Below, piece after piece: positions 1,761 through 54,393 of a stretch of 64,000 nt of DNA (position 1 is its first letter; each line of letters opens with the position of its first letter). Source of the DNA: an uncultured Planctomycetaceae bacterium (lineage in GTDB: Bacteria > Planctomycetota > Planctomycetia > Pirellulales > UBA1268). The stretch spans positions 8,970-72,969 of the forward strand of contig CAISJI010000216.1 of assembly GCA_903885565.1 (NCBI GenBank), read 5' to 3'. The notes beneath the pieces are model-generated. The model saw only the letters and a program-made list of their open reading frames with translations. It had not been told where the DNA came from and searched no databases. Both the position numbers and the translations under genes were made by a program.

Positions 1761-4130
1761 TCAATAGCGGGGCTTGCGGCCGAGCTTTTTGAGCCGGTTG
1801 ATGCGGAGCGTGCTGCCCCGAAACACGTTTTCAGGCCAGTCGCCGGCAGTGAGGATCGCACTGTAGATCGCCTTCTGCTCGTAGACGTTGACGCCGAATC
1901 CAGCCAGATACTGCAGCCGGAGATTGCCGTCGCGATTGATCTCCGCGTCGGCTAGCCAGGAACGCAACTGCGGTCCCGCGGCCGCGTAGGAGGAGAACAG
2001 ATCAGCGGCATTGTCGCAGCCGATCTCAGCGAGCGATTCACGCAGCAGGTGGGCATCGGCCGCGCGGAGCCGGCCGTCGATCCGGTCGAGATCGATCGTC
2101 AGCGGACCATTGCAGCCGAGCAGGATCAGGTCGTAGCCTGTGCCTCCGGAGGTATTGCCGAATATCAGGCCGTCGGGAAATACCTGGAGAAACGTGGCGA
2201 TCTCGCTCTTCACCGCCGGCGTGCCCGCCTCGTAGAGCTGCACAAACACCGTGATCACCCCGCCGGGAGCCAGATGCCGGCGTGCCAACTCGAAAAATTC
2301 CTGGGTGTAGAGGTTTGCCGCCCCACGCACCCACGGATCAAAAGGATCGCTCGTGATAGCGTCGAAGTGCTCGGTCGTGGTGCGCAGATAATGGCGGGCA
2401 TCGTCGATCTGCACGGACACTTTTGGATTGCGGATCACGTCGTGGTTGATGCTGCCAAAAAACGCTTCGGCGGTACGTGGCACCTCTGCCTCGATCTCGC
2501 AGATCGTCTCCGCAGCAACGGCGGGATCGACGCTCACGCTCCCTGCCGTAACTCCGGCGCCACAGCCGATGACGAGCACGCGCCGGGGGATTTCGGGAAC
2601 CAGTGTCGCCAGATGGCCGAGCATTCGTTGGAGCCTCATGTCCTGCGGTTCCCCCGAGGCCTGCACCTTGCCGGCGTTGTGGTAGTTGAGCGAGCCATCA
2701 GCGGAGCGGGAGACGGCTAATGTGCTCTCGGACCCTTCGCGAACGGCCAAAAACTCAACCGGCTGCTGGTGAAAGAGCGCGGCCAGCCGCCCCCAGCCAA
2801 CGAGCGCCGGCGCAAGCCCCGGCACCCGCGGAACGAGCAGCACCGCCATGAGCAGGCCAGTCGCAGGGGCGATCCAGCGGCCAAGGCGGGTTGGCCAACG
2901 CGAGTCCGGGAGCGCTGGCGGAACAGCGACAACTGCCGCCAGAGCAGCCGCAACAAGCAACCCTTGCTGTGTGGCCCGGCTCCCCGCTCCCGGCAGCAGC
3001 CAGAGCGCCGCAGCAAGACTGCCCAGAACGGCCCCGAGCGTGTTGGCGGCGAGGACGGCGCCTGTCGCGAGGGGAGTGTTTCCTGAACCATGCGTCGCCG
3101 ACGCGATGGCCAGCGGCAGGGTTGCCCCCCAGAGGCAGGCCGCGGGGAGAACGGCCACAAGGCAGCGGACACAATCGATCTGGAGTTGGGCCCAGGGGGA
3201 CGGCGCCAGCCGCGGGTTGACTGGCCACTCGGGCAGGCCGAGCCCCAGGGCCCAAGCGCCAAAGGCGATGGCCGGCACCAGCGCCACCTGGCACCAGACG
3301 AGCCACGCCCGAGGGGGCTGCAGCGTGCCCGCGACGGCAGCACCGATCCCCATTCCACAGAGAAACCCGGCGAGGATGAGCGAGAAGGTGTAGGTTGTGC
3401 CCCCGAGGAGGAGCGTCAGCAGACGGGTCCAGACCACCTCGGCCGCCAGGGCCGTGGCTCCCGAGAGGCAGGCGGCCACCAGCACCCCCTGATCGAGTGT
3501 TGTCCGCAGGAACGGCTCTCCTCCAGCACGCCTGCCAGGCTCGCTGAGCCCACCTCCACCGAGACGTGTCGCCAGCAGGACCGCCAGCCCGGCGGCGGCG
3601 AGGTTGCAGCCGACTGCGACAAGCGTCGCCACGCCGGTGTCGTGCACCCGGAGGAGGTAGAACCCCGCGAGGAGACACCCCACCACTCCGCCGAACGTGT
3701 TGGCGGCATACAGACCGGCGACCTGCAGGGCGGCGCGACGGCCGTTGCCGAGAGCCCGGGTGGCGACGGGGAGGGCCGCTCCCATCGCCAGTGTGGGCAT
3801 CAGCAGCAGGAGGCAGATTGTGAGCCAGTGGAGCGGTCCTGAAAGACTGCCTGCGGCGGCGATCAGGCCGGGAACGGCCAGGCCGCACAGCGCCGTGACA
3901 ACCTCAAAAGCGGCGCAGGCCAGCAGGGGGGAAATCGTCACGGGGATCATGCGGGGCACGATCAGGGCTCCGGCTCCGAGGCCGGTCATGAACGTGGCGA
4001 GGACGATGGCGAGCGAGCGGGTCGTGCCGCCAACATGCAGGGCGAGCACCTGGAGCCAGACAATCTCATACACAAGCGCCGCAGTGCCGCTGGCAACGAA
4101 CAGCGGCAGAAGGAGCCACGCGGATTTCAT
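1761..4130 (-). CDS. Fused polytopic membrane (MFS-like) / spermidine-synthase-like methyltransferase-fold protein
   Basis: The N-terminal ~480 aa are very hydrophobic with many TM segments. The C-terminal part has VLVIGCGAGVTAGS (SAM/dcSAM fold motif I) and ITSDPFDPW, typical of spermidine synthase-like proteins. I chose the start at MKSAWLLLPLF (4130); the track ORF extends to 4214. Confidence 0.8.
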   Translation of the reverse strand: MKSAWLLLPLFVASGTAALVYEIVWLQVLALHVGGTTRSLAIVLATFMTGLGAGALIVPRMIPVTISPLLACAAFEVVTALCGLAVPGLIAAAGSLSGPLHWLTICLLLLMPTLAMGAALPVATRALGNGRRAALQVAGLYAANTFGGVVGCLLAGFYLLRVHDTGVATLVAVGCNLAAAGLAVLLATRLGGGGLSEPGRRAGGEPFLRTTLDQGVLVAACLSGATALAAEVVWTRLLTLLLGGTTYTFSLILAGFLCGMGIGAAVAGTLQPPRAWLVWCQVALVPAIAFGAWALGLGLPEWPVNPRLAPSPWAQLQIDCVRCLVAVLPAACLWGATLPLAIASATHGSGNTPLATGAVLAANTLGAVLGSLAAALWLLPGAGSRATQQGLLVAAALAAVVAVPPALPDSRWPTRLGRWIAPATGLLMAVLLVPRVPGLAPALVGWGRLAALFHQQPVEFLAVREGSESTLAVSRSADGSLNYHNAGKVQASGEPQDMRLQRMLGHLATLVPEIPRRVLVIGCGAGVTAGSVSVDPAVAAETICEIEAEVPRTAEAFFGSINHDVIRNPKVSVQIDDARHYLRTTTEHFDAITSDPFDPWVRGAANLYTQEFFELARRHLAPGGVITVFVQLYEAGTPAVKSEIATFLQVFPDGLIFGNTSGGTGYDLILLGCNGPLTIDLDRIDGRLRAADAHLLRESLAEIGCDNAADLFSSYAAAGPQLRSWLADAEINRDGNLRLQYLAGFGVNVYEQKAIYSAILTAGDWPENVFRGSTLRINRLKKLGRKPRY

Positions 4131-4323
4131 CGGCTCCAGCCAAGAGTGGGCCCCGGGGGTTGAACTGCCGGATCGTAGCAGTCGGTTGCCACAAGCGCCA
4201 AAGCGGCGGCACAATCCCCCAAACCGCCCTGAAATCGTCAGCCCATGCCGACCGCTGGATCGATCGGCTATTCTTTGAGGCTCGGAGGGATCCCCGCTTC
4301 ACCATGCTCAGGGAGGAATCAGC

Positions 4324-5877
4324 ATGCCAGATGTCGCAAGCCTGATCGCGCTGCATGCCCCTTGGGCCACCGTCGATCGCCAGTGGCGGCTCACGCCATT
4401 TGAGCAGTTCATGTGGATGGATGACCGGCCGGCCTTTCCCCTCGTGTTTGAAGTCGTGCTGCGGTTTGCCGGCCCGATAGACCCGGTCGCGATGGCTGAT
4501 GCCTGGCGGTTTGCGATTGCCCGTCACCCGCTGTTGCGCGCCACCATCCGCACCAGGAGCGGCAGCCTGATCTGGGATGCCCCGGCAACCGGCTGGGTAG
4601 AACTGGCAGTCGCCGGTGCCGATGAGGAGCCTCCGGCCGATCTTCCCCGGATTGACCTCGAACGGGAACCGGGCCTGCAGGGCTCCCTGCGCGAGACGCC
4701 TGAGGGCTGGGATCTGGCGCTGCTCTTTCACCATGCCTGCTGCGATGGCCATGGGGCGCGAATGTTTCTGCAGGATCTTGTGCTCGCCTATACCGTCCTG
4801 GGAGGAGTCTCTCCGGAGGAGGATCCGTTTTTCCGTTCCGATGCTGCCCTGTTGGACGAGCGGGAAAAGGTTCCCAGCGCCGAAGGCGGGGGGAGGGCTG
4901 TGTGGCAGCGCCTCAAGCACGCGGCCCGCTTCTCCCTGCTGCGGCCCACACCAGTGGCGAGCAATATTTCCCCCGGCTTAGCAGGCTGTGGACAAAGTGC
5001 AGCATCGCTGGATGCGATGCCCGTCGGCCGTGGAAAACCTCGGCTTTTCCACCGGGCGACCGAGTGGAAAAAGTGCATAGAGGACTTTTTCCACGGGCGG
5101 TTAGCCCAGCCTGCCAGGCATCCATCAGGCTCCTCTCTCGGGCATCGCACGCACACGTTCTCTGCCGATGAAGTGGCGGGTATGGATGCCATCCAGCAGC
5201 GTTTCAGCGCCACCCGCAACGATATTGCCGTAGCGATGCTCTTCTCCGTGCTTGCTGGGTGGCAGCGGAGCAATCGAATCTCCCCACAGGCCCGGATGCG
5301 CGTCGCTGTGCCTACCGACATGCGTTCGCGCGCTGACGAGCGAATGCCGGCCGCCAATCGCTACACCTATATTTTTCTCGAACGCCGCATCGCCGACTGT
5401 GGCGACTGGGAATCGCTGCTGCCGGGGTTGCAACGCGATTTCCAGGAGCGCAGGCAGCAGGGACGGGGCATCCAGTTTCTCAGCTCGCTCAAGCGGGCCG
5501 CGCGCTTCCCTCAGGCCATGCGCTGGGTTTTGCAACGGCCCACCTGCTTTGCAACGGCTGTGCTCACGAATCTCAGCGATCCTTCGTGGCGGCTTCGCAA
5601 GCGACTGCCGGTGGATGCGGAGGGGCTCATGTGGCTCGGCAAGGCGCAGTGCCTCGACATCCAGATCCGGACGCCGCCGCTGCGGCCCGGCACGCGCTGG
5701 GGTTTTGGCATTTTCGAGTATGCCGGGAGGATGACGATCTCCTTCCGCTACGACGCAACGTCGATCACATCTGACGCGGCCGATGCGATTATGGAATGCT
5801 ACGTCAAGCACTGGCAGACGCTGCTGGCAACCTCAGAGGGCTGTCGCCAATCGGCGATCGCATCAGCAGCGGAGTGA
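4324..5877 (+). CDS. Condensation-domain / PapA5- or WS-DGAT-like acyltransferase (HHxxxDG) carrying an internal repeat element
   Basis: 517 aa. HHACCDG lies at aa 136-142. A C-domain-like TRNDIAVAMLFSVLAGW motif lies downstream in the same frame. Residues ~226-258 are encoded by the 98-bp repeat listed below. Confidence 0.7.
   Translation: MPDVASLIALHAPWATVDRQWRLTPFEQFMWMDDRPAFPLVFEVVLRFAGPIDPVAMADAWRFAIARHPLLRATIRTRSGSLIWDAPATGWVELAVAGADEEPPADLPRIDLEREPGLQGSLRETPEGWDLALLFHHACCDGHGARMFLQDLVLAYTVLGGVSPEEDPFFRSDAALLDEREKVPSAEGGGRAVWQRLKHAARFSLLRPTPVASNISPGLAGCGQSAASLDAMPVGRGKPRLFHRATEWKKCIEDFFHGRLAQPARHPSGSSLGHRTHTFSADEVAGMDAIQQRFSATRNDIAVAMLFSVLAGWQRSNRISPQARMRVAVPTDMRSRADERMPAANRYTYIFLERRIADCGDWESLLPGLQRDFQERRQQGRGIQFLSSLKRAARFPQAMRWVLQRPTCFATAVLTNLSDPSWRLRKRLPVDAEGLMWLGKAQCLDIQIRTPPLRPGTRWGFGIFEYAGRMTISFRYDATSITSDAADAIMECYVKHWQTLLATSEGCRQSAIASAAE
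5000..5097 (+). repeat. 98-bp double-hairpin repeat, copy I (inside the CDS 4324..5877)
   Basis: Near-identical to 35231..35327 in the same orientation. The shared string is CAGCATCGCTGGATGCGATGCCCGTCG...CCGAGTGGAAAAAGTGC...GACTTTTTC. Hairpin B is GTGGAAAAAGT/ACTTTTTCCAC, a perfect 11-bp stem. Hairpin A is GTCGGCCGTGGAAAA/TTTTCCACCGGGCGAC, which is imperfect. Confidence 0.85.
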
Positions 5878-5953
5878 TACGCGAGGCCCCAGCCTCCACC
5901 AGTGCCCCCGTCACAAGTGGCCCCGTCGCCTCGCACCTGCCGATCCCGCCGGC

Positions 5954-7489
5954 TTACGTGCCGCAGAATGTGCGGTAGGGTCCGCAGCCCCGTGGTGGGG
6001 CGGCGCGATAGGCAGCGTTCTCAGCTGATTCGATCCAGGGCGCCCGGATCGCAGCCAGCAGTCTGTGGGCGACTGACAGATCCCCCGACTCCGCTGCCTG
6101 GAGGGCTTCCTCAACCTTCTGGTTGCGGGGGATCACCAGTGGATTCACACGCCGCATCCGTGTGGCGGCCTCGGACAATGATCCGGGCTGGCGCTTCAGC
6201 CGCTCCAGCCAGCGGGTGCTCCAGTCGTGGAAAACAGGAAGGCTCCAAGGCTCGCCAGTGGCCGCTCCCGATTCAGCCATGCCGGCAAGGGCGGCAAACG
6301 TGGTGGTGAAATCGGCCCCCGCCTCATGCATCTGCCCGAGCAGCGCCGTGAACAGATCGCGGTCTCCATTTTCCTGGGTGATCAGGCCGAGCTTGGCCCG
6401 CGCTCCGGCGAGGTGATGCCGCTCGAACAGTTCCGGAAAGTGTGCCAGCACGCCCTGCACTTTTTCCAAGGCCGCCTCCTCATCCCCCCGCACCAGCGGC
6501 AGCAGGCTCTCGGCCAGTCGGGCGAGGTTCCAGTGGGCGATCGCAGGCTGGTTCGCATAGGCATAGCGAGCCTGCTGGTCGATCGAACTGAACACCGTGG
6601 TGGGATCATAGGCATCCAGAAATGCGCAGGGGCCGTAGTCGATGGTCTCCCCCGACACAGCCATGTTGTCGGTGTTCATCACTCCATGGACAAAGCCGAC
6701 GAGCATCCAGCGGGCCAGCAGGTGCGCCTGCCGGGCAACCACCGCCCCAAGAAATTCCGTCGCCGGGTCGTCGGTCGCAGCGAGGGTGGGATCGTGGCGG
6801 GCGATGGCGTGGTTGAGAAGCGCGGGGAGCAGGCCCGGCGGCGTGGCGCCCTGCTGGGCAGGGGGGTGGTTTGTCGTGGTGCCCGCGGGGGCCGCCCCCT
6901 GCGCGTCGATCGCCGCGGCATACTCAAACGTGCCAACGCGGATATGACTGGCCGCAATCCGGGTAAGGACCGCTCCGGGCAGGGGTGTGGTGCGCAGGAC
7001 CCATTCGCCGGTGGCGACCACAGCGAGGCTGCGGGTGGTGGGGATCCCCAGGGCATGCATCCCCTCGCTGACACAATACTCGCGCAGCATCGGGCCGAGC
7101 GCCGCGCGGCCGTCACCGCCGCGCGAGTAGCGGGTGCGCCCCGAGCCTTTGAGTTGGATATCAACGCGTCGGGAGTCGGGCGTGATGTGCTCGCCAAGGA
7201 GAATGGCCCGGCCATCTCCGAGATTGGTGAAGTGGCCAAACTGGTGGCCGGCGTAGGCCTGGGCAATCGGTTCCGCGCCCGGCGGCAGTGCGTTGCCGGA
7301 AAAGATCCCCTCTGCCACCGCGAGCAGAATGGCCGGATCGAGTCCCAGATCAGCCGCCAACGGTTCGTTGAACACCGCCACGCTCGGATCACGGACCGCC
7401 TTTGGCAATGCCGGAGAGAAGAGTTGCTCCGGCAGCCGGGCATAGGAATTGTCGAACCGCCAGCCTGCATCCCCGCCTGCCCCGTGCAT
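5954..7489 (-). CDS. selO: Protein adenylyltransferase (AMPylase) SelO/YdiU
   Basis: 511 aa. The N-terminus reads WRFDNSYARLPEQLF...AQAYAGHQFGHF...LGDGRAILLGE...DIQLKGSGRTRYSR, characteristic of the SelO pseudokinase family. Confidence 0.9.
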   Translation of the reverse strand: MHGAGGDAGWRFDNSYARLPEQLFSPALPKAVRDPSVAVFNEPLAADLGLDPAILLAVAEGIFSGNALPPGAEPIAQAYAGHQFGHFTNLGDGRAILLGEHITPDSRRVDIQLKGSGRTRYSRGGDGRAALGPMLREYCVSEGMHALGIPTTRSLAVVATGEWVLRTTPLPGAVLTRIAASHIRVGTFEYAAAIDAQGAAPAGTTTNHPPAQQGATPPGLLPALLNHAIARHDPTLAATDDPATEFLGAVVARQAHLLARWMLVGFVHGVMNTDNMAVSGETIDYGPCAFLDAYDPTTVFSSIDQQARYAYANQPAIAHWNLARLAESLLPLVRGDEEAALEKVQGVLAHFPELFERHHLAGARAKLGLITQENGDRDLFTALLGQMHEAGADFTTTFAALAGMAESGAATGEPWSLPVFHDWSTRWLERLKRQPGSLSEAATRMRRVNPLVIPRNQKVEEALQAAESGDLSVAHRLLAAIRAPWIESAENAAYRAAPPRGCGPYRTFCGT

Positions 7490-8387: not shown

Positions 8388-9503
8388 TCAGGCTGCGGCG
8401 CTGGCCAGCCGTTCGTGGAGTGCCGTGGCTTGCAGCAGGATGCAGCCCTGCAGGATCTCTGGTTTGCCGGGGCTGCCGACCGCTGCGGTGGGGCAGGCGA
8501 TCAGCCCCCTGAGCCGATGCCAGGTTTCCTTGAGCGCGTGAGGAACCGAGCAGGCACTGACATTGCCGGTGCGCCGCGTGAGTCCATTGATCAGTTCTCC
8601 CTGCACGCCGTATTCTTCGAGCTTCATCCCGGTGAAGCGAACGATCCCGGAACCGGCCTGATGAGGCACAACGAAGTTCACGTCGGCGCCGGAGAGTCCG
8701 CTGGCGGAGAGCGCCTTGGCAACGGCGGCCGACATGGCCCGCGGGGCGATTTCGGCGATCGCCATGCCGTCGAGCGAATAGACCAGCCGCTGGTCGTCAT
8801 GGCCGGTACCGCCGCCAGGAATGGGGAAAGCGACGGCGGGCCTCAGATGGAAATCAAAGGCCGACTTCTCGGTTGGCTGTTTCTCGGCATCGGCATGCAG
8901 AATCGTGAAATGCGCCGGATGGCGGCGGTTGGCCGGAGGGGCCAGCAGCGTGGCCGAGGCCATGTCGCCAAACAGGCCGGCGGTCTGGCGGCAGTTGTAG
9001 TCGGTGATCCGGCTAATGCGGCTGGCGGCGACAACGAGCAGGTATTGATCCTGCCGCAGAGCGAGCCGGGGGGCCCAGCGCCGGCAGATGAGGCTCAAGC
9101 TGCGGCTGTAGCCACAGCAAAACCAATTCAGGCCGATCGTGCGTGCGTGTGGCATTCCCAGCAGGCGGGCCAGTTGCCGGGCGGCGCGACTGGGGCGTTC
9201 CCCCGCCACCTCGGCCGGTTTCAGATGCCTGCGGGCGGTCGAAGCGGGAAGAAAGGAGGGGGAGACGAACACCATCCCGCGGCAGTCGGCCAGATTGCAG
9301 CCGGTCTCCTGCTGGAGTTGGCGCACCGCATGCAGGCCCATCGTCACCTCATCGTCGAGCGAGATGGCGCGGGCCTCGATCCCGGTGTGATGGGCAAACT
9401 TGCGGGGCATACTGGCGCCGAACCAGCTGTTTTCCAGTTCCCACTGGGGCTGGTGGAGAGCGATGGCGGAGATGCCCAGGGGTGTGGTGGCGGAGGTGTC
9501 CAT
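8388..9503 (-). CDS. KAS III (FabH)-like thiolase-fold condensing enzyme
   Basis: 371 aa. The Cys-His-Asn triad context is NWFCCGYS, VPHQAGSG and TGNVSACSVP (compare FabH VPHQAN / GNTSAASIP). Confidence 0.75.
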   Translation of the reverse strand: MDTSATTPLGISAIALHQPQWELENSWFGASMPRKFAHHTGIEARAISLDDEVTMGLHAVRQLQQETGCNLADCRGMVFVSPSFLPASTARRHLKPAEVAGERPSRAARQLARLLGMPHARTIGLNWFCCGYSRSLSLICRRWAPRLALRQDQYLLVVAASRISRITDYNCRQTAGLFGDMASATLLAPPANRRHPAHFTILHADAEKQPTEKSAFDFHLRPAVAFPIPGGGTGHDDQRLVYSLDGMAIAEIAPRAMSAAVAKALSASGLSGADVNFVVPHQAGSGIVRFTGMKLEEYGVQGELINGLTRRTGNVSACSVPHALKETWHRLRGLIACPTAAVGSPGKPEILQGCILLQATALHERLASAAA

Positions 9504-51027: not shown

Positions 51028-51071
51028 ACCGGTATCGGCTAGCGTGCCGAGCACGCACGCACGCTAAGCGC

Positions 51072-51241
51072 GACTGGCCGCCGGGAGGGCGGCCTCACAG
51101 AAGCGGGCGGAGGCCCGCCAAGCGAAAACGGGCATGATGCCCGTGTTTCGCGTGAAGCGGCCCGCCGGGAGGGCGGCCTCACAGAAGCGGGCGGAGGCCC
51201 GCCAAGCGAAAACGGGCATGATGCCCGTGTTTCGCGTGAAG
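51072..51241 (+). repeat. 84-bp three-hairpin repeat, two tandem copies
   Basis: The copies are 51072-51157 and 51158-51241 (period 84). The core is CCGCCGGGAGGGCGGCCTCACAGAAGCGGGCGGAGGCCCGCCAAGCGAAAACGGGCATGATGCCCGTGTTTCGCGTGAAG. The hairpins are CCGCC-gggag-GGCGG, GCGGGC-ggag-GCCCGC and ACGGGCA-tga-TGCCCGT. Confidence 0.9.
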
Positions 51242-51409
51242 ACGACACGCAAAAGCTACGCAGGGGCTGCCAAGCCTCGCTAGCATCGTGTACAAACGTC
51301 CTACTCCTTCGGGTGGTCAAATCACCAACGCACAAGCCGTCGAAGACGGTCATTCGATTGATCGCCCGCACAGTGATCTCGTAACCGGGTTCCCTTCTCC
51401 GGAAAAAAC

Positions 51410-53038
51410 ATGGCGCTGAATCGCTGGCAGACTCTGCCGAAAAACCAACTCAATCGTCTTTTGGACCGCAGCCATACGCTGCAGGGCGCCGTTCTTGTTG
51501 GGTTAGACGGCCTGTTAGTTGAGATGCAGGCAAGGGCAATGAATGTCTATGCTGAAGGTATCCCGTGGGGATTGGCCGTCCGGATTTCCGGAATGGCAAA
51601 GGGCACTGTTCGCGAATCGCTCGATCGCATCAGCGGAGCATTTCGGGCGGCCGGTATTCCTGACTCCCAGGCGGAAATCTTGATCAACCTAACTCCGCCG
51701 GAGATTCCAAAGGATGGAACATGGCTGGACCTTCCCCTTGCGTTGATCATGCTGCAGGCGACCGGTTATCTGCCAGATCTGACCGAAGACAAGGAAAAGA
51801 ACTTTGTTGTTGTCGGCGAACTTGGTCTGCACGGAGACATTCGCCGTATTCCCGGCGTGCTTTCGTTGGCTTATTTGGCAAAAGCTGGACAGAAACTCAT
51901 TGTTCCCTTCGGCAACGAGAAGGAAGCCGCTTTGATAATGGCCAAGCCAGGCCATGACGGATGTGGAGTCTTTGCTGCCAAGAAACTAATGGAAGTAATC
52001 GATTTTTTCTCTGGCCGAGGAAAACTGGACAACGCGCTGAGCCAGCGCATCTCGTTCGAAAGCGTGGTGGAGAAGGCGATTGATTTTGGGAAAATACGCG
52101 GCCAGAGTGAGGCCAAGGACGCAGCCATCATTGCGGCCGCCGGTGGCCATAACTTATTGCTCATTGGCCCGCCCGGAGAGGGAAAATCGCTGCTGGCGAG
52201 CGCAATGCCAGGAATTCTTCCCCGATTGACGGACCCTGAAAAAGTTCAGCTGACACGGATCTACTCGGCCGCAGGGAAGCTGGATCGAGATGGGCAAGCC
52301 GTCACGCGACGGCCGCTGCGAACCGTTCACCACACGGCCTCCAAGCAGTCCATCATCGGCGGAGGTTCTGGAGTGCCTCGGCCCGGTGAGATCACCATGG
52401 CCCACTTGGGAGTGCTTTTTCTCGACGAAATCGCCGAGTTTCCAGCGGCAACTCTTGAGGCTATGCGACAGCCTCTTGAGGCCGGAGAAATCACCGTAAC
52501 CCGGGTTGCAGGAAGCTTTACGTATCCCTGCCGATTCGCGCTTCTGGCGGCCATGAATCCATGCCCGTGCGGCTATTACGGCACGGAGCGCTGCAGTTGC
52601 AAGCCGGATGCGGTTCGACGCTACCTCGGCAAAATCAGCGGCCCGATTTCAGATCGCATCGATTTGCAGGTCACTCTCAGGCCGTTATCCACGGACGAGC
52701 GGTTTGCTGCTACGGAGGACGGACAGTCTCCGAAATTGCGCGGCCATGTGGAGGCGGCGAGGCTCCGGCAGGCGGAGCGGTTTAGCGGCACGGACATTCC
52801 GTTCAATGCGGCGATACCGGGCGGCGCCGTCGTGGAATACTGCCAGTTCGGGGAAGCGGCTATGAAACACTACAGGCAACTGATCGAAGAGAACACGCTG
52901 TCAACCCGATCAATGGATCGATTAGCCAAGGTGGCCCGAACCGTAGCCGACTTAGCGGGCAGCGATTCGATTGAGCCGAAGCATGTCGCCCAAGCCGCCA
53001 AGTACGTCATCGGAGGAGTGCTCCGAGAGCAGTATTGA
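51410..53038 (+). CDS. comM: YifB/ComM family ATPase (Mg-chelatase-like, MCM-related AAA+)
   Basis: 542 aa. It has a Lon-like N-domain, Walker A LLLIGPPGEGKSLLA, Walker B GVLFLDEIAEF, the Zn/Cys cluster NPCPCGYYGTERCSC and a C-terminal SMDRLAKVARTVADLAG. Confidence 0.9.
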   Translation: MALNRWQTLPKNQLNRLLDRSHTLQGAVLVGLDGLLVEMQARAMNVYAEGIPWGLAVRISGMAKGTVRESLDRISGAFRAAGIPDSQAEILINLTPPEIPKDGTWLDLPLALIMLQATGYLPDLTEDKEKNFVVVGELGLHGDIRRIPGVLSLAYLAKAGQKLIVPFGNEKEAALIMAKPGHDGCGVFAAKKLMEVIDFFSGRGKLDNALSQRISFESVVEKAIDFGKIRGQSEAKDAAIIAAAGGHNLLLIGPPGEGKSLLASAMPGILPRLTDPEKVQLTRIYSAAGKLDRDGQAVTRRPLRTVHHTASKQSIIGGGSGVPRPGEITMAHLGVLFLDEIAEFPAATLEAMRQPLEAGEITVTRVAGSFTYPCRFALLAAMNPCPCGYYGTERCSCKPDAVRRYLGKISGPISDRIDLQVTLRPLSTDERFAATEDGQSPKLRGHVEAARLRQAERFSGTDIPFNAAIPGGAVVEYCQFGEAAMKHYRQLIEENTLSTRSMDRLAKVARTVADLAGSDSIEPKHVAQAAKYVIGGVLREQY

Positions 53039-53039
53039 G

Positions 53040-53672
53040 ATGCAAACGCGACATATTATCGGTATCGCAGGGCTTGTGATCGCCCTTCTTGGAACGATCT
53101 TCGACCTCATCGCGGTAACGGCATTTGCCCATTTTGTTCTCGCCACAGGCATTCTGCTGGCGATGGTCGGTTTTCGGGCGGAGCTAGCCCCGCTGCTCGC
53201 AACTTGGACAAAAGCGTTGTTGCAATGTTTGTGGAGTCTTGGCCGTTGCCTTGCCCGTCTCTTTCAGTTCTTGTTCATCAGGGCATCTGGCGGGCGGAAA
53301 CGCGGATCACTGCACCGATGGAATGACCTCGGCGATTTCGATTTTGAGGTCGTCGGAGAATCGAATTACCAGCCAGCGTTGACTGCTGTAACTGGCGGCC
53401 GTATCGCCGGGTCCGAGGGAATTTTTTGCGAAGCGGAACTGGTTCCCGAATCAAACAACAAATTCGATTCCATGGCAGTCGCGGTATCCGTCAACGGCAG
53501 AAAAGTTGGCTACTTGGCGCGGAGTGACGCCAGAGAATTCCGGGATCGGCTGGCAGATTCTGGCCTGACCGGCCAAGTAACGGTCTGCCAAGCAATGATT
53601 CGCGGCGGAGGCCGCCGCCGCGACGGTGAGGCAATGAGCTACGGCATCTGGCTCGACATTGAGCCATTCTGA
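53040..53672 (+). CDS. Membrane-anchored HIRAN-domain protein
   Basis: 210 aa. Two or three N-terminal TM segments are present (IIGIAGLVIALLGTIFDLIAV..., ATGILLAMVGF). The HIRAN-like core is FEVVGESNYQ...LVPESNNKFDSMAVAVSVNGRKVGYLARSDAREF. The ATG lies 1 nt after the comM stop. Confidence 0.75.
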   Translation: MQTRHIIGIAGLVIALLGTIFDLIAVTAFAHFVLATGILLAMVGFRAELAPLLATWTKALLQCLWSLGRCLARLFQFLFIRASGGRKRGSLHRWNDLGDFDFEVVGESNYQPALTAVTGGRIAGSEGIFCEAELVPESNNKFDSMAVAVSVNGRKVGYLARSDAREFRDRLADSGLTGQVTVCQAMIRGGGRRRDGEAMSYGIWLDIEPF

Positions 53673-53756
53673 CGTGCGGTGAACTCTAGGCGGCCTGCAG
53701 TTGGCTCGGCGCCTAGCTTCGTCACGGCTCACGCGCTGAGAGAGGGCGCCACGCGG

Positions 53757-53842
53757 GACTGGCCGCCGGGAGGGCGGCCTCACAGAAGCGGGCGGAGGCC
53801 CGCCAAGCGAAAACGGGCAGGATGCCCGTGTTTCGCGTGAAG
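53757..53842 (+). repeat. 84-bp three-hairpin repeat, third copy (same orientation)
   Basis: Identical to the copies at 51072-51241 except for one substitution, which falls in the loop of hairpin 3 (tga to gga). It is immediately followed by GGGCCATGGATGGCCC (53846-53861), the inverted form of the 45170/45273 palindrome core. Confidence 0.9.
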
Positions 53843-53873
53843 CTAGGGCCATGGATGGCCCTTCAGGCGCTAT

Positions 53874-54092
53874 TTACAGTATCCCGCCGTGCGTGCGGTA
53901 GGCGGTCATGTGCGACGGCTGATCGAGGAACCAGATGCGTTCCCACTCGTCGGTGATCGCCCGCAGATCTTCGGAGGTGAAGATGAGTTGCTGGGCCCGG
54001 CGGACCGGATCGCCCGAATACATCGGGATGAGGCAGCCGGTGCTCATCGGGAGCGCCACGGCCGCCAGCAGAATCCAGCACAGTTTCCTCAT
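53874..54092 (-). CDS. Small lipoprotein (hypothetical)
   Basis: MRKLCWILLAAVALPMSTGC is a lipobox-like signal. GGAGGA lies 7 nt upstream of the ATG at 54092. The track ORF is longer, running to 54284. Confidence 0.55.
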   Translation of the reverse strand: MRKLCWILLAAVALPMSTGCLIPMYSGDPVRRAQQLIFTSEDLRAITDEWERIWFLDQPSHMTAYRTHGGIL

Positions 54093-54393
54093 CACTACGT
54101 CCTCCATGACGGACTCAACCAACTTGCTTGAACGACCCGGCGATATCCGCCAGTCGATTCTCTTGCCTGCCTGGCCGGGACATCCTGTCCGCAACCGCTC
54201 ATCCACCCACTGCCAAAACCGATCTAGTACCACGCGGCTCGTCTGAGCCGCAATCCATCGTCTGTCGCGGGGACCTCGGATCACCAGCCTCGCGAAACCC
54301 CCGCACCCACTCTCACTCCGCCAGTCTGCCCAAACTCTTGTTCGATATTTTTTTCAGCCTGTTGAGGCGGCTGGCAGTTGCTTCAGCCTCGAC

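Follow-up and report, generated by a model that had tools for sequence, protein, structure and literature searches.

Why should the gene of a branch-migration helicase be coupled directly to that of a membrane-anchored HIRAN protein? The question is raised by a stretch of 64,000 nucleotides (nt) from an uncultured Planctomycetaceae bacterium (contig CAISJI010000216.1, positions 8,970 to 72,969; the whole stretch is called the window), in which comM/yifB (51410..53038, + strand, 542 amino acids, aa) is followed by the gene of a putative membrane-anchored HIRAN protein (53040..53672, + strand, 210 aa). ComM is a hexameric branch-migration helicase (PMC6158740); in the absence of DNA it is mostly a monomer, loading factors may be required, and its loading in vivo is described as unresolved (PMC11612176). 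DprA recruits ComM via its winged-helix domain, and how the loading of ComM and the direction of this bidirectional helicase are controlled has been stated as an open question (PMC12012524). The comM–HIRAN pairing and the fusion of the two domains in related bacteria suggest that ComM may be brought to DNA ends in a manner not yet described, in which HIRAN would act as a 3'-end-binding targeting partner for ComM and, in the window, would be membrane-anchored and translated together with it. This reading is tentative and held with somewhat less than even confidence. A first-pass annotation of the window had proposed the two genes as a DNA-processing module; its observation of the gene pair is borne out, while the functional module finds partial support and is not general. 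It had also known of no described system with this pairing, and the literature searched likewise yielded no paper joining HIRAN with ComM (in its biological sense) or with YifB.

The helicase gene and its HIRAN-encoding partner

The TGA stop codon of comM (53036-53038) is separated by a single base, G (53039), from the ATG of the HIRAN gene at 53040, so that the 1-nt spacing reported from the first inspection (53038 to 53040) is confirmed. Alternative in-frame starts lie further upstream (TTG 52971 and ATG 52983), and for the homologue P0001, which is 95% identical, the gene caller chose the ATG equivalent to 52983. The homologues start at a methionine directly before the first hydrophobic helix (alignment A1), and ATG 53040 is therefore the likely start. 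With every candidate, the two genes overlap or adjoin. Window and sister strain L001 share the same junction sequence, although the two have diverged by a synonymous distance (dS) of ~0.1. Outside the window's own species-level lineage, the order comM first, HIRAN gene second was not encountered.

The identification of the upstream protein as ComM/YifB holds. It scores 420.3 bits with the NCBIfam model TIGR00368 (YifB), against a curated cut-off of 362.4, and contains the Pfam domains ChlI (PF13541), Mg_chelatase (PF01078, E 1.3e-79) and Mg_chelatase_C (PF13335) in this order. The Lon-like ChlI domain covers aa 57-169, the AAA+ Mg_chelatase ATPase aa 225-428 and the Mg_chelatase_C domain aa 439-532, all encoded on the + strand. 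A Walker A motif, GPPGEGKS (52166-52189), a Walker B motif, VLFLDE (52412-52429), and a cysteine cluster, CPCGYYGTERCSC (52562-52600), are present on the same strand. In the predicted protein, the ATPase motifs of ComM are thereby shown to be intact.

The downstream protein starts with two predicted transmembrane (TM) helices (aa 5-25 and 27-45; 53052..53174, + strand), which reach Kyte-Doolittle 19-mer maxima of 2.35 and 2.18 and correspond to helices at aa 2-24 and 28-44 in the AlphaFold2 model. AlphaFold2 and hydropathy place behind them an amphipathic helix (aa 46-82) and then a basic linker, SGGRKRGSLHRWN (aa 83-95; together 53175..53324, + strand). The hydrophobicity of the amphipathic helix is weak, and the membrane anchor, first described as having two to three TM helices, is thus upheld as two TM helices plus this segment. 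The positive charges of the linker suggest that the linker side faces the cytoplasm; by the positive-inside rule, this orientation is suggested for the linker and the HIRAN domain together.

The remainder of the protein is a beta-rich, HIRAN-fold domain (aa 96-208; 53325..53663, + strand), recognized by Foldseek and a PDB profile search and containing the motifs VVGESNYQ (53349-53372, + strand) and NKFD (53457-53468, + strand). With Pfam HIRAN (PF08797), the window protein reaches 24.3 bits (E 2.8e-5) against a gathering score of 24.7. Among its relatives, P0002 (30.3 bits) and the fusion protein P0052 (25.8 bits) lie above this value and the protein of the contig L175 (18.7 bits) lies below it. 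The AlphaFold2 model has a mean predicted local distance difference test (pLDDT) score of 88.5. In a Foldseek search against PDB it matches 3k2y (lp_0118 of L. plantarum) and several HLTF HIRAN entries with probabilities of 0.95-1.0, whereas all non-HIRAN matches stay below 0.2; the TM-scores of the HIRAN matches are modest (0.35-0.53). The best match in BFVD comes from a phage and is annotated as 'HIRAN domain containing protein' (E 3.5e-8, root-mean-square deviation 3.4 Å). HIRAN chains are the sole matches of the family profile in PDB, and in this alignment the NKFD motif of the window protein (F142-D143) falls on the NPYD motif of HLTF HIRAN. Y110, N140 and D143 are invariant across the 17 family members of alignment A1. 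In HLTF structures, the aspartate of the N-x-Y-D motif contacts the 3'-OH and the tyrosine stacks; the window protein's D143 and Y110 would have the corresponding roles. A comparison with PHROGs returned weak matches of unknown function alone. Since Foldseek, the PDB profile search, the Pfam score of P0002 and the invariant residues agree, the prediction that the downstream protein carries a HIRAN domain is accepted, even though Pfam itself falls marginally short for the window protein.

Recurrence of the HIRAN–ComM link

HIRAN and ComM are joined in three arrangements within one ComM clade, so that the pairing extends beyond a single genome. The arrangement of the window recurs in its sister strain, represented by L001-L006 from ENA metagenomes: the DNA of the locus is ~96-97% identical, ComM 99% and the HIRAN protein 95%, and the gene order is unchanged. 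Homologues of the HIRAN protein were collected by a word-indexed search (16 homologues) and by pattern scans for the family (50 viral loci from IMG/VR and 80 metagenomic loci). When the loci of this family were searched with ComM by tblastn, the sister strain and an unrelated soil contig, L175, were retrieved and no others. L175 carries a TM-HIRAN gene (4318-5430) and, directly downstream of it and in the same orientation, a 64%-identical comM; the order is thus reversed relative to the window, with HIRAN first and comM second.

In the third arrangement, the two proteins are fused. Among the best 120 ComM matches, at least 11 protein clusters are HIRAN::ComM fusions of 749-810 aa with HIRAN at the N-terminus, and their ComM part is 73-76% identical to the window's ComM. 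An hhalign comparison of the fusion HIRAN with the window's family gives a probability of 98.4% (E 5.5e-15); where the window protein has NKFD, the fusion has an NPHD motif. Within the fusion clade, mean identity is 80% in the HIRAN region, 51% in the linker and 85-87% in the ComM domains; the HIRAN region is better kept than the linker and is therefore under constraint. The fusion gene sits amid housekeeping genes. A search with the N-terminal 248 aa of the fusion P0052 returned two weak matches and missed the fusions themselves. In P0052 and its relatives, the linker (aa ~175-225) contains a conserved helical segment, LRMIYCRYAQxKAWNSLP…EKLAAW, which corresponds to no recognised domain.

Besides the HIRAN fusions, the N-terminal extensions vary among the ComM proteins of this clade. 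A CxxC...CxxC zinc-ribbon forms the extension in P0128 and in L175 (5700-7478), while P0136 (683 aa) has ~140 and P0131 (611 aa) ~70 additional N-terminal residues. The N-terminus of ComM seems to be a place where accessory modules accumulate. Genes related to sbcC are found at several of these loci: comM is followed by sbcD-sbcC at the P0128 locus, an SbcC-like gene abuts comM in L175 (7501-9555), and in L179 an SbcC-like gene (2799-5792) lies directly upstream of the TM-HIRAN gene.

Origin and surroundings of the pair

In the first inspection, the pair had been assigned to a foreign, repeat-bounded cassette. The repeats and the atypical composition are real: the GC content at third codon positions (GC3) is 0.62 in comM and 0.60 in the HIRAN gene, against 0.73-0.89 in most neighbouring genes. 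The foreign origin of comM is poorly compatible with the remaining data. Its dS between the window and L001 (0.117) equals that of flanking genes (0.096 for pyrD and 0.102 for trpS), and its ratio of nonsynonymous to synonymous divergence (dN/dS) is 0.04 in the same comparison. A GC3 below that of the surroundings is also seen for comM in other genomes (L013, L223 and L175), and the relatives at 63-82% identity among the best 120 matches belong, where named, to Pirellulales, Paludisphaera and Aureliella. The equal dS, the recurrence of low GC3 elsewhere and the planctomycete relatives argue that comM is native. Considered as a recently imported foreign copy, comM is countered by its dS, its dN/dS, synteny and these relatives, despite its atypical composition. 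Of the features of a mobile cassette, direct repeats and low GC3 are present, a recombinase is absent, and the pair is found at the same locus in the sister strain.

The genes flanking the pair are, by annotation, housekeeping genes. Those upstream encode ThiS-like, MoaE, MoaA-like, class V aminotransferase and CxxCxxCC proteins, and those downstream comprise a small open reading frame (ORF) and the genes of HU, pyrD, trpS, acpS and topA. No integrase, phage gene or other island cargo was found at the window's locus.

The repeats consist of an 84-nt intergenic unit predicted to fold into three hairpins. Two tandem copies lie 5' of comM (51062..51242) and a third lies 3' of the HIRAN gene (53747..53843), neither being assigned to a strand. 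These three copies are the only ones in the 64 kb window and all bracket the comM–HIRAN pair, while none would be expected by chance. They therefore enclose comM and the HIRAN gene together, not the HIRAN gene alone. The folding z-score of the unit is -4.3 on the + strand and -5.7 on the - strand, and on the minus strand the third copy forms a terminator-like hairpin just past the end of an ORF at 53874-54284. Rfam contains no family for the 84-nt repeats or the surrounding region, and a sigma-70 scan found no promoter. Minus-strand ORFs over the repeats (e.g. 51039-51371 and 53451-53852) were considered as genes and rejected as artefacts of translating the repeat.

The sister strain L001 contains one repeat copy on each side of the pair (6163-6256 and 8760-8859). 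These copies differ by a few bases from those of the window and were detected by BLAST, an exact-match search being empty. Between the CxxCxxCC gene and comM, L001 additionally contains a 1.9-kb gene of the beta-lactamase family (4263-6162, minus strand, 517 aa), in place of which the window has its extra repeat copy (~51028-51160). The gene is thus swapped for a repeat copy, and the insertion or deletion therefore adjoins the repeat.

The ORF at 53874-54284 (- strand), located between the HIRAN gene and the HU gene, encodes a small protein with a lipoprotein-like signal sequence (…LAAVALPMSTGC…). It matches no Pfam or NCBIfam model and is kept in the sister strain, where it is called as 72 aa.

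In two related loci, the neighbourhood of comM has a different composition. In L226 (1-14682), comM lies among PIN/ParE toxin-antitoxin pairs, AbiEii, SLFN-like helicase fragments and a serine recombinase, and a 161-aa C-terminal ComM fragment precedes the full-length gene. In L228 (1-15641), it lies among type I restriction-modification genes, T5orf172, a D5 primase and a tyrosine integrase. In both, the comM neighbourhood looks like an insertion hot-spot.

A proposed targeting role for HIRAN and its alternatives

According to the preferred reading, ComM is the organism's own branch-migration helicase, and its partner in the pair is an accessory subunit that was acquired and would bring ComM to DNA 3' ends. 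The HIRAN domain, predicted to be cytoplasmic by the positive-inside rule, would bind the free 3'-OH of single-stranded DNA, as HLTF HIRAN does, and would then nucleate or orient the assembly of ComM, which is monomeric until on DNA, at a D-loop or fork junction. The ComM ring could subsequently migrate the branch in a defined direction. In the version of the window, the membrane anchor would bring this step to the inner side of the membrane, the place at which imported single strands appear. The functional link is supported by the 1-nt coupling, the fusions and the adjacency in L175. The location of other family members beside DNA motors or nucleases (P0002, P0013 and L179) is also counted for a targeting role: P0002 adjoins an Mrr-DEAD/SNF2 helicase gene, and P0013 adjoins a primase gene with an SNF2-domain gene two genes upstream.

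Several known systems resemble parts of this proposal. The putative role of HIRAN would parallel the way in which DprA's winged-helix domain recruits ComM. The DprA-recruited ComM/YifB proteins of Vibrio cholerae, Helicobacter pylori and Legionella pneumophila belong to the same helicase family and have the domain layout of the window's ComM, and the idea that ComM depends on an accessory DNA-binding protein for access to its substrate is common to both; the proposed recruiter, however, is a membrane-anchored or ComM-fused HIRAN instead of DprA. Eukaryotic HLTF/Rad5, which combines HIRAN with an SNF2 translocase and a RING domain and acts in fork reversal, likewise joins HIRAN to a motor that remodels branched DNA, and its N-x-aromatic-D motif is kept in the window protein. 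The window's motor is instead an AAA+ MCM-like ring, a RING domain is lacking, and HIRAN is supplied as a polypeptide of its own with a membrane anchor. By structure and by sequence, the window protein is matched best by standalone HIRAN proteins of bacteria and phages (e.g. lp_0118, PDB 3k2y, and an uncultured Caudovirales protein), which are small, consist largely of one HIRAN domain, are often located on mobile elements and are functionally uncharacterised. Unlike these, the window protein and its near family have an N-terminal membrane anchor, and the window gene is coupled to comM. Bacterial HIRAN domains are also present in Hip kinase modules, where they have been discussed as possible DNA-end sensors (PMC8262856, PMC11706625). 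In the HipL kinase and the HipN antitoxin of Hip toxin-antitoxin modules, HIRAN domains are similarly combined with an effector, but the window pair is without a kinase or HipS-like domain and the partner is a helicase. A ComM with a built-in or adjacent HIRAN domain would thus be a natural variant that bears on ComM loading and direction and mirrors the HIRAN-plus-motor design of HLTF/Rad5.

The targeting role must be weighed against the distribution of the two families. A profile search over 1.84 billion cluster representatives (clusters at 50% identity) assigns 6746 clusters to the TM-HIRAN family at E <=1e-3 and 464 at E <=1e-30. An N-terminal hydrophobic segment is present in 112 of the 150 best representatives, and in these TM-bearing members lysine and arginine residues average 2.67 after the segment and 0.68 before it; the HIRAN domain is therefore predicted to be cytoplasmic. 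Leaving the sister strain aside, the homologues with checked context lie mostly on phage-like contigs, with terminase, GpA nuclease, primase and DnaB/SSB genes, and none of them is near comM. By these contexts, the family is mainly phage-borne and would function without ComM. The adjacency in L175 is the single extra one among 133 family loci and is not significant alone (~0.07 immediate neighbours expected by a rough estimate). Conversely, HIRAN of this family occurs within 6 kb of comM in none of 80 diverse genomes, the hidden Markov model used for these loci being subfamily-specific, such that distant HIRAN types could escape it; the genome-contig scan with ComM gave mainly pattern-matched ComM proteins of other phyla, which are ~40% identical. 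Among closer planctomycetes, no HIRAN gene is found near comM in L226, L227, L228 or the P0128 locus, nor downstream of comM in L013 (69% identical, upstream cut off), nor within the 150 nt readable downstream of comM in L229 (82% identical). The clusters listed as fusions form a single clade and therefore represent one evolutionary event, and in the AlphaFold2 model of a 796-aa fusion the pLDDT is below 50 over residues 1-153. Finally, the HIRAN gene is less constrained than comM: compared with L001, its dN/dS is 0.36 over the whole gene and 0.27 in the domain, values based on 21 differences only. The distribution, the small number of independent events, the weaker constraint on the HIRAN gene and the low pLDDT of the fusion model weigh against the targeting role. 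HIRAN is joined to ComM only sporadically, and ComM in general lacks such a partner: by the refutation criterion of the first-pass annotation itself, the neighbour is unrelated in several related loci, and a HIRAN of this family is missing within 6 kb of comM in the 80 diverse ones, while it is linked to comM in the sister strain, in L175 and in the fusions.

The main rival of the targeting role is that the HIRAN gene is an incidental neighbour, i.e. a phage-derived 'moron', such as a superinfection-exclusion membrane protein, that was inserted beside comM by chance and works independently of ComM. The phage-like contigs of its relatives with the 50 loci from IMG/VR, the islands around comM in L226 and L228, the missing HIRAN gene downstream of comM in the 82%- and 69%-identical relatives, a dN/dS above that of comM, and the repeats flanking the pair with an insertion or deletion adjoining them are consistent with this explanation. 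It is also favoured by the upstream same-strand neighbours of the family: a repressor of the CI/LexA type with helix-turn-helix and Peptidase_S24 domains was detected in 12 of 90 cases (133 family loci). A chance insertion would nevertheless leave the HIRAN::ComM fusions and the L175 adjacency within the same ComM clade unexplained. In addition, the window's locus is devoid of integrase, phage genes and island cargo, the repeats bracket both genes instead of the HIRAN gene alone, and the 1-nt coupling is conserved. An incidental neighbour is considered less likely than the targeting role.

Two further explanations would give the pair, or its membrane protein, a role in conflicts over DNA. In a defence module, as also entertained by the first-pass annotation, the membrane-bound HIRAN would sense 3' ends of invaders and ComM would serve as the motor that unwinds or expels phage or plasmid DNA. 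A defensive function has been predicted for HIRAN-HipA gene clusters (PMC11706625), and the prophage-immunity-region context of the TM-HIRAN family fits such a role. A comparison with PADLOC-DB 2.0 returned no match for the HIRAN protein and, for ComM, only weak generic AAA+ noise (E >=3e-4). The surroundings of the window pair and of the fusions are housekeeping genes and not defence islands, the strong purifying selection on ComM is like that of the core genes around it, and a nuclease or toxin effector is absent, so that a defensive function of the window pair is very unlikely. The TM-HIRAN protein could alternatively antagonise transformation by sequestering either the 3' ends of imported strands or ComM itself, thereby damping the recombination of incoming DNA. 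The association of its family with mobile elements would be in line with this, since blocking transformation benefits such elements; two publications describe interference of mobile elements with transformation, comM being a frequent target (PMC11441513, PMC11472951). An antagonist would hardly be expected to occur in a conserved in-frame HIRAN::ComM fusion among housekeeping genes, no mobile element surrounds the window's pair, and this explanation carries little probability.

The targeting role can be combined with the phage-borne distribution of the family. In such a joint reading, HIRAN would serve specifically to sense 3' ends, loading ComM and fixing its polarity independently of DprA, the membrane anchor of the window's version would physically couple DNA import across the inner membrane to the start of branch migration, and prophage TM-HIRAN proteins would capture 3' ends at the membrane and thereby keep out superinfecting or transforming DNA. 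This combination is unlikely. If the sensor part were true, it would provide a DprA-independent answer to how the bidirectional ComM is directed.

The searches also reveal that membrane-anchored HIRAN proteins form a very large, uncharacterised family. Many of its members are encoded beside prophage repressor genes and are candidates for excluding or sensing DNA on its entry in a new manner. Judging from general phage biology, the prophage immunity region beside the repressor would be a classic place of exclusion and defence genes, and this context keeps a conflict-related role open for the TM-HIRAN family. The position beside a repressor suggests that the genes are expressed from the prophage. 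Rha-type regulators are found among the further upstream neighbours. Matches in cultured phages are few and include Nostoc phage Nsp-JY10, where the gene lies beside an XRE gene; the likewise few plasmid matches are located in an IS-rich (insertion sequence-rich) region of the Eleftheria terrae megaplasmid and on Xanthomonas plasmids. The TM-HIRAN gene lies directly 3' of the repressor gene and on the same strand in the phage-like contigs L093, L094, L096, L101, L102, L104, L129-L131, L151, L163 and L166, and in the longer of these loci the two genes are found at about 5000-6400.

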